From Escherichia coli (GTDB lineage: Bacteria; Pseudomonadota; Gammaproteobacteria; Enterobacterales; Enterobacteriaceae): 13,636 nucleotides of DNA. Location of the stretch: the NCBI RefSeq assembly GCF_003334315.1, contig NZ_QOWR01000080.1; one strand, given 5' to 3'. Of the stretch, positions 3,526-6,554 are shown in pieces; within the stretch, counting starts at the first letter, position 1; every line of letters starts with the position of its first letter. The position numbers and the translations under genes are program-made. The notes beneath the pieces were generated by a model. It saw only the letters and a list, made by a program, of their open reading frames with translations, was not told the origin of the DNA and searched no databases.

Positions 3526-3798
3526 ATGTTATTAAACGAGGTAATCCCTATGGGTTCGCTTACTAAACAAACCATCAGCGCGCAGATACCTATTGAATTG
3601 GCCGCTGCTGTTGAGAATCTGGCAATTGAGTTAGATCGTTCTAAAAGCTGGATTATTAAGGAAGCGTTGACCAGTATGCTGGCCGAAAGAGAACGGCGTC
3701 ACCAGAGCATCCAGGCCGGTCTTGCTGATGTGGATGCCGGTCGTGTGATGAGCCACTCGGACATGGTGGATTTTGCTAATCGCTTAAAGAAATCCTGA
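3526..3798 (+). CDS. Ribbon-helix-helix (CopG/ParD-like) antitoxin
   Basis: Small ORF with AGGAG 8 nt upstream of ATG 3526; alternative ATG at 3550 has a GAGG site. N-terminal beta-strand-like segment (ISAQIPIELAAAVENLAIELDRSKSWIIKEAL) is typical of RHH DNA-binding antitoxins. Its stop lies 3 nt before the next ORF. Confidence 0.65.
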   Translation: MLLNEVIPMGSLTKQTISAQIPIELAAAVENLAIELDRSKSWIIKEALTSMLAERERRHQSIQAGLADVDAGRVMSHSDMVDFANRLKKS

Positions 3799-3801
3799 TA
3801 A

Positions 3802-4077
3802 ATGGAAATTTACTGGACGCTTAAAGCTCAGGATGACCTTGAGCGTATCTATCGTTTCGCCCTTCAGTATAGCCGCCAGCACGCCGATGACGTTTTGGAT
3901 CGCCTGATTACTGGTTGTGCTGGTCTTACAGCACATCCGGCAATTGGTGTACAGCAGACTCGGTATGAACCTCGGGAAGTCCGAAAAGTGTTATTTGATG
4001 ATTATGAGGTCCACTACGAACTTCGTGACAATGACATTTATATCGTGGATCTCTGGCATACCAGAGAAGAACGATGA
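3802..4077 (+). CDS. ParE/RelE-superfamily toxin
   Basis: 91-aa ORF translationally coupled to the upstream RHH gene. Size and sequence character (MEIYWTLKAQDDLERIYRF...YIVDLWHTRE) fit ParE-like toxins. Confidence 0.65.
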   Translation: MEIYWTLKAQDDLERIYRFALQYSRQHADDVLDRLITGCAGLTAHPAIGVQQTRYEPREVRKVLFDDYEVHYELRDNDIYIVDLWHTREER

Positions 4078-4090
4078 AGAGCAGCTCTTC
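4076..4090 (+). other. Short palindrome GAAGAGCAGCTCTTC overlapping the ParE-like stop codon; possible weak stem-loop
   Basis: Visible inverted repeat. Followed ~35 nt later by T-rich direct repeats, so terminator function is uncertain. Confidence 0.3.
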
Positions 4091-4125
4091 ACATTAGCGA
4101 GTATAGCCTACTAGCTAAAACTCAT

Positions 4126-4156
4126 TTTTGTGTTTTTTACTCTTTTTTGTGTTTTA
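4126..4156 (+). promoter_or_regulatory. Two T-rich direct repeats (TTTTTGTGTTTT, 17 nt apart) upstream of the HTH gene; candidate operator/promoter region
   Basis: Direct repeat visible at 4126-4139 and 4143-4156, about 40 nt upstream of the ATG at 4194 and its GAGGGGG ribosome-binding site. Confidence 0.35.
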
Positions 4157-4193
4157 ATGATATCCATTACTTCTTGGCAAGTGAGGGGGCATC

Positions 4194-4982
4194 ATGCAAA
4201 ACAAAATCAAAGAACTTCGTACTCAACTATCAATCACTCAGCGTGAATTGGCAGATATGGTTGGTACCAGCCAACAACAGATCCAACGTATAGAGACAGG
4301 GAAAGTTGCGGCCAGGTTAGGACTGGCGCAGGCGATAAGTGCTGTTTTAAAGAAACCATTAAATGCGGTTTTTCCTGGTAACGATACTTTATTGCAAAAA
4401 GTGCGCAACCAAAGTAGCCGTAGTGATGATGATCTGAAAAGCATCGCCGATAGTGGTATTGAAATGGATGGCTGCATTTGGACGGTGAAACTCTGGTTAC
4501 GAGGGCAGCAAGATTATTTACTCTTACCTATTTCCCCTGCTGATAAGCGTCGTTTTTACTCATACTTTCAGGAAAGAGCAGCGCCTGATTATGAGCATTT
4601 CTTTGTTTTCGACTCTGAACAGCATCGTTATGCCTTAAATGCCCGAGAGGTGATTTTCCACCAATTCTTGTTTGATGGTTTTCCACCTATCCCTGATGAA
4701 GAGGCAAATGAAGAAAGATATGGGAATGTCCATATCACCATGGTGAATGGTGGTCCGGTTATTGAGCTTTACTGTGAGCCAGATGAGTCCGAGGACGAAA
4801 GTGATGGCGATATCGGTCAGTTGAATGCATTTTTTGACATTCTGGAATCAGAGCCTGAATCAACAGAGCGATATCAGTTAACCGACATAGATGGAGAAGA
4901 TGCTTTTATCCGTATTGGGTCTATTGCGATGGTGCGGGTCGCGCTTGACGCGTTAGAACCTGTGGAAGACGATGAAGAGTAA
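4194..4982 (+). CDS. XRE-family helix-turn-helix protein with a ~190-aa C-terminal domain of unknown function and an acidic tail
   Basis: 262-aa ORF with strong GAGGGGG ribosome-binding site. N-terminus (IKELRTQLSITQRELADMVGTSQQQIQRIETGK) is a classic Cro/cI-type HTH. The C-terminal part is not recognised by me and ends in acidic runs (EPDESEDESDGD, EPVEDDEE). Confidence 0.7.
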   Translation: MQNKIKELRTQLSITQRELADMVGTSQQQIQRIETGKVAARLGLAQAISAVLKKPLNAVFPGNDTLLQKVRNQSSRSDDDLKSIADSGIEMDGCIWTVKLWLRGQQDYLLLPISPADKRRFYSYFQERAAPDYEHFFVFDSEQHRYALNAREVIFHQFLFDGFPPIPDEEANEERYGNVHITMVNGGPVIELYCEPDESEDESDGDIGQLNAFFDILESEPESTERYQLTDIDGEDAFIRIGSIAMVRVALDALEPVEDDEE

Positions 4983-5102
4983 TTTTTGAGCTAGCTAAGA
5001 TCTCAGAGAATTGCGTTGAGTATACATGTGAGTATATATGGCGGTTCTCTTATTTTTCAATTTCAATTATTTCAGTTGGTTACGTCGAGAATAGCGGTGC
5101 GG

Positions 5103-5140
5103 CCTTCGCACCTTCGCACCTTCGCACCTTCGCACCATCG
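5103..5140. repeat. Tandem 8-bp repeat (CCTTCGCA x4, followed by degenerate CCATCGGA)
   Basis: Directly visible at 5103-5140 in noncoding DNA. Confidence 0.85.
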
Positions 5141-5150
5141 GAACATCAAT

Positions 5151-5173
5151 AGACGTCAACGGACGTTTTTTTT
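5151..5173 (+). terminator. Weak intrinsic-terminator-like element: 5-bp stem (ACGTC/GACGT) followed by T8
   Basis: AGACGTCAACGGACGTTTTTTTT; short stem but a long T tract, downstream of the HTH gene. Confidence 0.3.
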
Positions 5174-5339
5174 ATGACTGAAATCCGCGCCACACAAGGC
5201 TTTTCGCTATTTTTCGCTCAACCTAAGTCAACCTACATCAACTTACTGATGTGGATACAGCTACAGCTGCGGCTATATCCCGATTCGATAATGTTTGTAC
5301 CCACACAAAACCCTTGAAAGGCTACAAGGCTGAAATTGT

Positions 5340-5525
5340 CTAAACCATAGAGATGATTTTTATGATCCAGTCTTTCTCTTGTTGAGATAGTTCCAGTTTG
5401 CTCACTCGTGTTAAGAAGGTATTGATCACCTGAACATCCGAATTGGTGAGCCTATTTAATAGAGCGGGTGGTATACCTTTACTAACAATTGCTTTGCGGT
5501 GACTTTCGTAGTTTTTATTACTCAT
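5340..5525 (-). CDS. Hypothetical small protein (61 aa)
   Basis: Minus-strand ORF with GAGGA 7 nt upstream of its ATG. No recognisable family. Confidence 0.35.
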   Translation of the reverse strand: MSNKNYESHRKAIVSKGIPPALLNRLTNSDVQVINTFLTRVSKLELSQQEKDWIIKIISMV

Positions 5526-5590
5526 TGGTGATCCTCAAATATCATTGTATGGCGGCATTGATCGTTTCCAGCAACCTTTACTTACTCACT

Positions 5591-5824
5591 TCAAACTGCA
5601 TCCTCGTAGACTGTTCCACTACAATAATCGAAAAGGCGCGGATGTCCATTCAGGTATCCCGCTAATACGTATAGCAATAACAATGGTTTATGCGGTGCGC
5701 GCTGTTCACCCTTATGCCAGATTTTTATATTGGCAATTGCCTGCTGTAGCGATTTACTGGAAGCCATTGATATCCCTGGCAGTGAAATAATTGCGATCAT
5801 GCTCGCAAATTTTCTGCTGTTCAA
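5591..5824 (-). CDS. Hypothetical small protein (77 aa from TTG at 5824, or 69 aa from ATG at 5800); contains motif APHKPLLLLYVL; possibly a remnant of a larger gene
   Basis: Minus-strand ORF divergent from the HNH gene. The motif resembles N-termini of proteins I cannot place confidently. The ORF is short and directly followed by the second small ORF, which would fit a decayed gene. Confidence 0.3.
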   Translation of the reverse strand: MNSRKFASMIAIISLPGISMASSKSLQQAIANIKIWHKGEQRAPHKPLLLLYVLAGYLNGHPRLFDYCSGTVYEDAV

Positions 5825-5903
5825 GCCTGCAAGTGAAGATATATTACCTTGATCTCATTTGTTTTTTTGCTGCTTGTTCTGAGAACGTATAAGGACATTC
5901 TCC

Positions 5904-6554
5904 ATGAATAAACTCCCCGATCATCTTCCTCGGCGGTATATCATCAAAGCTATTCATTTATGGGATGCGGGAGAAACTCATCAGTTCCAGCCTGCACGGT
6001 TGTATGAGATTGAATATCATGGCCGACGTTACCCCTCGAAGGCGATTGCTGGTATCGCAGCGACATTGATGACGGGGACGCAATTTACCCCTGCGGATTT
6101 CACCGGCGGAATAAAATCTAAATGCGTCAAGCTACTTATAGATCAGGGATTTCATATTCATCAGGATAAAGCCGCTGCGGCTCCCATAGCCGATGTTCTG
6201 TTCCCGGATGAGTTGCCGTCGCAGGGGACCTACGTTGAAGGTGCGGCGATAAAGGTGACGGTAAACCGCTATGAACGCGATAAAAAAGCTCGCGAGAAAG
6301 CAGTCGAACATCACGGATGCCAGTGCAACGTATGCGGCGTTGATCTGGTGAAGATCTATGGCGATATCGCTGAGGGTTTTATCCATATGCATCACCTGGT
6401 GCCGCTTTCAGCCATTAAAGAGGATTACCAGCTGGATCCAGTTAATGATTTACTTCCTGTGTGCCCTAATTGCCATGCGATGCTGCACCGGCGCAAACCA
6501 CCGTTTACGCCGGAGGAGTTAAAAGCGCTGATGGATGCGAATAAATCAAATTAA
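5904..6554 (+). CDS. HNH endonuclease with an N-terminal non-catalytic (putative DNA-recognition) domain
   Basis: 216-aa ORF with AAGGA ribosome-binding site. C-terminal part has paired Cys and His motifs typical of HNH nucleases (CQCNVCG...HMHHLVPLS...CPNCHAMLH). The N-terminal ~120 aa is a separate domain I cannot name. Confidence 0.75.
   Translation: MNKLPDHLPRRYIIKAIHLWDAGETHQFQPARLYEIEYHGRRYPSKAIAGIAATLMTGTQFTPADFTGGIKSKCVKLLIDQGFHIHQDKAAAAPIADVLFPDELPSQGTYVEGAAIKVTVNRYERDKKAREKAVEHHGCQCNVCGVDLVKIYGDIAEGFIHMHHLVPLSAIKEDYQLDPVNDLLPVCPNCHAMLHRRKPPFTPEELKALMDANKSN

Follow-up and report, generated by a model that had tools for sequence, protein, structure and literature searches.

We analysed a 13,636-nt stretch of Escherichia coli DNA, hereinafter the window, with a focus on positions 3526-6554, where a ribbon-helix-helix (RHH)-ParE toxin-antitoxin (TA) pair, a gene for an acidic helix-turn-helix (HTH) protein, an 8-bp microsatellite, small open reading frames (ORFs) and a gene for an HNH nuclease lie next to each other. 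A first-pass annotation had listed these features, every one of which was located in the sequence, and had interpreted them as a compact islet that might act as one defence system. We found that this 3-kb interval is very probably a seam of three unrelated pieces within the known leuX hotspot, neither a single insertion nor a single defence system. The left piece is the tail of a CP4-57-like element that is integrated at tRNA-leuX, the middle piece is the attachment site of this element, and the right piece is the floor of the hotspot, that is, the DNA between leuX and nanS (Table 1). Along the window, the distal part of the element (DUF932, RadC, YeeU, CbtA, DUF4942) is followed by nanS-nanM-nanC-fimB-fimE-fimA; the upstream CP4-type module reported in the first-pass annotation is indeed present, its genes being so named in a genome that is 99.99% identical to window positions 205-8668.

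The distribution of the interval among genomes is that of separate pieces. When window 3474-6561 was compared by megablast with 5426 complete E. coli genomes, some part of it was detected in 3246 genomes, and the matches formed two classes with the boundary at the microsatellite. The left part (3474-5096) was present in 94 genomes, with the RHH-ParE-HTH trio nearly complete in 87, and the HNH gene was complete in 1239, with remnants in 2868. The first-pass annotation had suggested a check of conservation as a block and had named independent distribution as the outcome that would speak against joint action; independent distribution is what we observed, with at least 80% of the interval found in 19 genomes, the trio in 87 and the HNH gene in 1239.

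The boundary between the two classes coincides with the microsatellite, which Tandem Repeats Finder reports as 4.8 copies of the 8-bp unit CCTTCGCA at 5103-5140 (96% matches, score 69) and which we identify, from its sequence and position, as the core of the right attachment site (attR) of the element. This core can be written GGCCTTCGCACC(TTCGCACC)3A and is a direct repeat of the end of leuX: the genuine gene ends with GGCCTTCGGCACCA, from which GGCCTTCGCACCA differs by one base. At element ends in E. coli, Salmonella, Dickeya and Klebsiella, GGCCTTCGCACCA is located 115-120 bp 3' of the HTH gene, and the single-copy motif was found at the same position in six of the loci compared (L009, L010, L011, L028, L031 and L033). 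The unit TTCGCACC is present in four copies in the window, L001 and L002 and in one copy in the other loci, and was probably amplified from one to four copies by replication slippage. An Rfam search of the interval yielded no family match and ARAGORN detected no tRNA gene anywhere in the window, so the microsatellite belongs neither to an intact tRNA nor to a known RNA. The attachment site divides the tail of the leuX element from the chromosomal floor, so that the view of the interval as a single inserted islet does not hold, and this division, combined with the independent distribution, contradicts joint action of the genes. For island annotation, a conserved terminal HTH gene followed by GGCCTTCGCACCA provides a marker of the right boundary of leuX-integrated CP4-like elements. 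The locus also illustrates a more general caution, namely that adjacent TA, regulator and nuclease genes can mimic a defence operon across the boundary of a mobile element.

The assignment of the tail to a leuX-integrated element has to be weighed against the fact that the window itself contains neither leuX nor an integrase gene, positions 1-205 being occupied by an end of the insertion sequence IS1. The left end was deduced from L001 and L008, which represent the genome type that is 99.99% identical to the window. In these loci, the same genes are preceded by genes for a GTPase, a Gp2-like protein and other CP4-type proteins, and the far end, which lies outside the window, consists of a tyrosine integrase gene beside an intact tRNA-Leu(CAA) gene, leuX, that adjoins ahr. 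The IS1 end in the window shares 99.5% identity with the IS1 copies of L001, L002 and L004, and its location at the start of the window indicates that the CP4-like element is truncated or interrupted on the left in this strain.

To the right of attR, the sequence is that of the native chromosome and of a lost island. The flank tcggaacatcaatagacgtcaacggacgtttttttt that follows attR is the one that follows genuine leuX in two Citrobacter loci (L023 and L024). Positions 5174-5321 are collinear with the DNA that precedes the intact integrase genes of L009 and L008 and the integrase remnant of L010, and the homology ends at 5321/5322, just before the start codon. At the position of this scar, the integrase of a second island is intact in L009 and reduced to a remnant in L010; in E. 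coli W, an intact second-island integrase occupies the same position, after a DUF6088-AbiEii cargo. A look-up with the sequence of a 61-aa ORF of the floor (orf61), in which all the matches returned were contig-end fragments, yielded the metagenome contig L037 with the island-free order ahr, genuine leuX, terminator, identical integrase scar, orf61. Given this order, the window from position 5138 onward corresponds to what separates leuX from nanS in the absence of an island; the floor would be what remained between these genes once the second island had been lost. The scar arrangement (5141-5903) was found at a coverage of at least 80% in 787 of the complete genomes.

Table 1. Features of the 3526-6554 interval and its immediate surroundings, in window coordinates
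Feature	Position	Strand	Remarks
Element tail	3526-~5100		right-hand end of the CP4-57-like element at tRNA-leuX
RHH (CopG-type) antitoxin gene	3550..3798	+	ORF could start at 3526; Pfam RHH_1, E=6e-7
ParE toxin gene	3802..4077	+	Pfam ParE_toxin PF05016, E=1.4e-15, model positions 1-88 of 89
Two 17-nt direct repeats (ACTCwTTTTTGTGTTTT)	4120..4155	+	repeat family D3; candidate operator/promoter element
Xre-family HTH protein gene, 262 aa	4194..4982	+	HTH_3 at residues 5-56, E=4.8e-13
Attachment site (attR core of the element)	5101..5137	+	pseudo-copy of the 3' end of tRNA-Leu, GGCCTTCGCACCA, with four copies of TTCGCACC in place of one
Hotspot floor	5138-6561		DNA between leuX and nanS, probably left after loss of a second island
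Native leuX 3' flank	5138..5173	+	terminator hairpin and T-run; terminator-like site 5151-5168
Leader/promoter region of deleted P4-type integrase gene	5174..5321	+	junction 5321/5322
61-aa ORF (orf61), part of the scar allele	5340..5525	-	RefSeq hypothetical protein WP_000066585.1; full-length match to phrog_25874
EcoWI-type SBD-HNH phosphorothioate-dependent restriction gene, 5' remnant (pseudogene)	5604..5767	-	first 48 codons, then divergent sequence
18-nt palindrome TTGCGATCATGCTCGCAA	5791..5808	both	hairpin scan; in the promoter region from which the SBD-HNH remnant and the HNH gene diverge
ScoMcrA_N ("head")-HNH endonuclease gene, intact, 216 aa	5904..6554	+	Pfam HNH, E=4e-4
29-aa ORF, antisense to and overlapping the 3' end of nanS	6554..6643	+	RefSeq WP_374758120.1 in L001; homologous to the C-terminal part of K-12 YthB

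The intact nuclease gene of the floor encodes the HNH protein. Most likely, this protein is a type IV restriction enzyme that works alone and whose gene is occasionally moved as a cassette with an EcoWI-type gene. Its homologues, of which more than 2600 were found, carry the ScoMcrA_N (PF26345) and PF01844 domains; the window protein can be aligned with the head domain of ScoMcrA (PDB 5zmm, residues 29-93) over residues 24-87 and with the HNH domain of EcoKMcrA (6ghc) over residues 123-198. The HNH beta-beta-alpha-metal motif with its zinc-binding cysteines is intact, and residues C141, C144, H161, H163, H164, C187, N189, C190, H191 and H195 do not vary among 29 diverse homologues. At the N-terminus there is a ScoMcrA_N head domain. 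As is typical of type IV enzymes, no methyltransferase ORF was found nearby, between positions 3400 and 6700; furthermore, PADLOC matched the protein to single-gene mREase_IV models. The head domain would target the enzyme and the McrA-like HNH domain would cut. The protein shares its head domain with ScoMcrA (head-SBD-SRA-HNH, where SBD is the sulfur-binding domain) and its McrA-like HNH domain with a Cys4 zinc site with EcoKMcrA (NEco-HNH), and it resembles these type IV enzymes in having no adjoining methyltransferase gene, but it differs from both in that SBD, SRA and NEco are all missing and the head is the only N-terminal domain.

The genomic context of the homologues is consistent with a stand-alone function. 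Genes of the head-HNH type stand alone in Pantoea, Citrobacter freundii, Enterobacter and Shewanella, and in further genera they do so beside type I restriction-modification (RM), GmrSD, PLD-helicase or dnd genes. When one genome per species was scanned, the head domain was detected at 13 loci; in 10 of these the gene stands alone, and in the remaining 3, all from Citrobacter, it has a divergently oriented SBD-HNH neighbour. In one Citrobacter locus (L024, 2413-8651), the head-HNH gene directly follows genuine leuX, next to dnd-type phosphorothioation genes that encode a DndA-like aminotransferase, a dnd-associated protein and an SMC-like ATPase. The C-terminal module of the protein (residues ~95-216, VNRYERD...CPNCHA) was also found, by a contig scan, without the head domain in many phyla (L051-L120), presumably fused there to other N-terminal domains, a modular architecture that is typical of type IV enzymes.

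The counterpart of the HNH gene on the opposite strand is a remnant of an SBD-HNH gene, which lies within a minus-strand ORF (5591-5824) and is annotated in RefSeq as 'restriction endonuclease, incomplete'. The remnant matches NF045808, the model for a 'phosphorothioated DNA-binding restriction endonuclease', at positions 2-45 of 284 with E=1.6e-16, which falls short of the curated cut-off. Its homology to the complete gene begins at 5604, and the encoded sequence reproduces, without any change, residues 1-48 of the 290-aa SBD-HNH proteins from E. coli W and BY63. Because only these 48 of the 290 codons are retained, the stump, as opposed to EcoWI, lacks both the sulfur-binding and the HNH domains. 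EcoWI is a phosphorothioate-dependent SBD-HNH enzyme that restricts dnd+ plasmids and acts alone both in vitro and in vivo (PMC7461809). In E. coli W, the SBD-HNH gene adjoins nanS at the end of the 20-kb second island, which also encompasses an integrase gene, kinase/HerA genes, type I RM and McrBC. We infer that this gene encodes EcoWI from the name of the strain and the size of the product only (290 aa and 33.3 kDa, compared to the published 33.4 kDa; PMC7461809), which tempers the identification; no accession or sequence of EcoWI was found in the main text or the supplement of that paper. The window's strain type may still be capable of phosphorothioate-dependent restriction despite the dead copy at the nanS flank, judging from a full-length second SBD-HNH gene in L001 (1102-1980), which is located right after the leuX integrase gene, ~11 kb upstream of the window start, and encodes a protein with 76% identity to the nanS-flank type.

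Two points weigh against the stand-alone interpretation of the HNH protein. First, the divergent head-HNH/SBD-HNH pair is found in E. coli, three Citrobacter species and Klebsiella aerogenes, with the palindrome TTGCGATCATGCTCGCAA kept in the spacer; in K. aerogenes (L012, ~4845-4870) the remainder of the spacer has diverged, and the palindrome may be a shared operator. The HNH protein may thus ordinarily work jointly with the SBD-HNH partner, whose gene is defunct in the window. Second, the authors of the ScoMcrA study describe the head as a small, flexibly attached domain of unknown function (PMC6224610). It is conceivable, if on balance improbable, that the ScoMcrA-type head itself reads some DNA modification, so that the head-HNH proteins would constitute an uncharacterised type IV family that forms a co-regulated cassette with EcoWI-type enzymes, via the palindrome at 5791-5808, in E. 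coli, Citrobacter and K. aerogenes. Such a two-nuclease cassette would widen the range of modified DNA that is restricted. As for what the head might recognize, the passages of PMC11037411 at hand lend no support to the proposal that the ScoMcrA head is an N6-methyladenine-sensing winged helix.

A more demanding version of the pairing holds that head-HNH and SBD-HNH form a cooperative two-gene cassette, a 'split ScoMcrA', in which case the HNH protein of the window would be an orphan with impaired or no function. The shared divergent arrangement and spacer palindrome are what would be expected of such a cassette; however, the head-HNH gene stands alone not only in most of the species-level loci but also in five further contexts, and EcoWI requires no partner for activity. 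Among the complete E. coli genomes, SBD-HNH is found in 1707, HNH in 1239 and both, intact, in 326, which is below the ~390 predicted by independence (1239 x 1707 / 5426), and at least 787 genomes without the partner carry an uninterrupted HNH ORF that retains every catalytic residue. We accordingly consider the cassette model unlikely, and less likely than the stand-alone type IV enzyme. BY63 and SCU-171 retain both nuclease genes in intact form, the window type retains intact HNH alone, ChlosBP-23-1, E. coli W and O157:H7 retain intact SBD-HNH alone, and K-12 has lost both; in HUM3355, an IS1 lies directly against nanS. These alleles, compared at the sequence level, indicate that the two nuclease genes at the nanS flank decay independently, by deletion. 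Whatever their partners, the head-HNH proteins represent a large candidate family of restriction enzymes that is worth keeping.

On the other side of the attachment site, the antitoxin and toxin genes are in the same orientation, with a gap of 3 nt between the end of the former (3798) and the start of the latter (3802). As in ParDE type II TA systems, a gene for a ParE/RelE-fold toxin is immediately preceded by one for an RHH antitoxin, and both products are ~82-91 aa long; the window antitoxin differs in scoring below the NCBIfam curated cut-offs, with a weak RelB-like match. In RefSeq, the identical antitoxin protein starts at 3550 and is named CopG family RHH protein, and the toxin is named RelE/ParE family toxin. 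The pair most likely stabilises the element through post-segregational killing. It occupies a slot of variable content, bounded by DUF4942 on one side and the terminal gene of the element on the other: RHH-ParE is present also in Salmonella, an unrelated 132-aa protein in K. oxytoca, PIN and DUF6088 in Dickeya (L031, 2753-3911), and DUF6088 and AbiEii in E. coli W (L020, 15795-17130), where the HTH gene is absent. The presence of differing TA or abortive-infection cargo after DUF4942/CbtA points to a dedicated cargo hotspot within CP4-like elements.

The HTH gene is the last gene of CP4-57-like elements across the genera compared, in which the genes between DUF4942/CbtA and the HTH gene differ; L002 and L003 retain HTH remnants only. 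The encoded protein has an isoelectric point of 4.4, with 28 D/E and 4 K/R among residues 170-262, and this acidic C-terminal region consists of two tandem alpha/beta modules. Most likely, it is a regulator of the element. Upstream of the gene, at window positions 4120-4160, we detected the motif TTACTCnnTTTTGTGTTTTAATG accompanied by AAACAC/GTGTTT half-sites, which is also found upstream of the HTH gene in L009, L011, L028, L031 and L033 and is probably the gene's own promoter or operator. Of the two direct repeats in this region, the proximal copy, together with 'AATG', is kept ~40 nt 5' of the HTH orthologue in Salmonella, Dickeya and Klebsiella regardless of the identity of the upstream gene. 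Because the HTH gene is constant and keeps its own upstream motif while the slot genes vary, it is a core gene of the element, with RHH-ParE as one alternative cargo of the slot.

The counterargument is that, of the 94 E. coli genomes with any part of the left segment, 87 carry RHH, ParE and HTH together, as does Salmonella, so that some functional coupling between the pair and the regulator may exist. Under the corresponding model, they comprise a three-component module, a TA pair with a dedicated Xre regulator or sensor that is carried as a unit at the element end. The intact trios, with 79-100% nucleotide identity, occupy several chromosomal sites, and in Rhodanobacter an HTH orthologue is found near an integrase gene and a ParE pair. 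Against this, the HTH gene keeps its place and the conserved upstream motif beside PIN and DUF6088 or beside the unrelated 132-aa protein, and it is separated from ParE by a spacer of 116 nt; moreover, the RHH antitoxin is already the usual autoregulator of ParDE pairs. The diverged copies of the trio (79-84% nucleotide identity), at other chromosomal coordinates, lie in the same position of the same element type. A dedicated three-component module is thus doubtful, and we favour the combination of a core HTH gene with exchangeable cargo.

The order of genes DUF932, RadC, YeeU (CbeA) and CbtA, and integration at a tRNA gene whose 3' end is duplicated as a direct repeat, are shared with CP4-57, CP4-44 and CP4-6; the window subfamily differs from these in the addition of DUF4942, the variable TA slot and the terminal Xre-HTH gene. 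To our knowledge, the CP4-type copies of K-12 lack all three additions.

The proposal that RHH-ParE, HTH and HNH form one defence system inserted beside nanS as a unit draws on the location of the locus in a defence hotspot, on the high frequency of all three gene types in defence systems and on PADLOC matches of HNH to type IV enzyme models and of HTH to generic defence-associated HTH models, but it is highly improbable given that the attachment site lies between the TA pair with the HTH gene and HNH, that the whole block is as rare as described above, that the HNH side directly follows genuine leuX in the island-free contig L037, and that no PADLOC system model matches RHH or ParE. These generic HTH and type IV matches were the only PADLOC hits in the interval: RHH, ParE and the small ORFs had no match, and no multi-gene system model was matched. 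Likewise, scans of the interval against NCBIfam and PHROGs produced no system-level match.

The expectation of the first-pass annotation that the region is a variable hotspot was borne out, with Zorya II, McrBC, type I RM or IS1 replacing the interval in other genomes. The hotspot is real but previously published: the leuX region is E. coli defence hotspot #37, anchored on leuX and the most occupied of 41 hotspots according to the available passages of PMC12707154, which summarise Hochhauser et al. 2023. ParDE, CP4-57-like elements, EcoWI and McrA-type enzymes are likewise all of known kinds. The window shares with hotspot #37, or the hypervariable leuX region (KpLE2 in K-12), the site between ahr-leuX and nanS-fim, the P4-type integrase at the leuX end and a strain-variable content of type I RM, McrBC, Zorya and phosphorothioation-related genes; it differs in representing only the distal 3 kb, in a combination that is rare among E. 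coli genomes. Neither the attR microsatellite nor the nanS-edge nuclease pair is described in those passages of PMC12707154, and the main text of a defence-island paper (PMC10121019) names neither leuX nor nanS.

The cargo also differs from that of K-12, as the first-pass annotation had stated. K-12 carries yjhR, topAI-yjhQ and yjhP, together with a scar of ~240 nt that is homologous to window 5624-5747 and 5808-5927. K-12 ythB (b4802; L007, 10598-10696) is a deletion scar of the head-HNH gene: its first 16 nt are the start of that gene (window 5904-5919), fused at a CG microhomology to the sequence after the HNH stop (6562-6643), antisense into nanS. Independent deletion of the nanS-flank nuclease genes thus explains the origin of the small protein YthB of K-12. 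A 2025 RNA-seq survey lists ythB-nanS among convergent 'excludons' (PMC12288877), which suggests that the former HNH promoter continues to function in K-12.

The small ORFs of the interval are of unequal standing. The plus-strand ORFs at 5016-5317 are present but probably are not genes, because they overlie the attachment site, the terminator hairpin and the integrase leader. The minus-strand ORF at 5340-5525 is annotated in RefSeq; the minus-strand ORF at 5591-5824 turned out to be the 5' remnant of the phosphorothioate-dependent restriction gene.

At the right edge, the HNH stop at 6554 and the end of the convergent nanS ORF at 6562 are 7 bp apart, in agreement with the first-pass annotation. 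The nanS ORF is intact in the window (6562-7542, 326 aa). In several genomes with HNH or an HNH remnant (L001, 15503-15847; L002, L003, L005 and L020), RefSeq presents nanS as a short partial pseudogene accompanied by a 29-aa hypothetical protein; these pseudogene calls are probably an annotation artefact of the overlapping small ORF.

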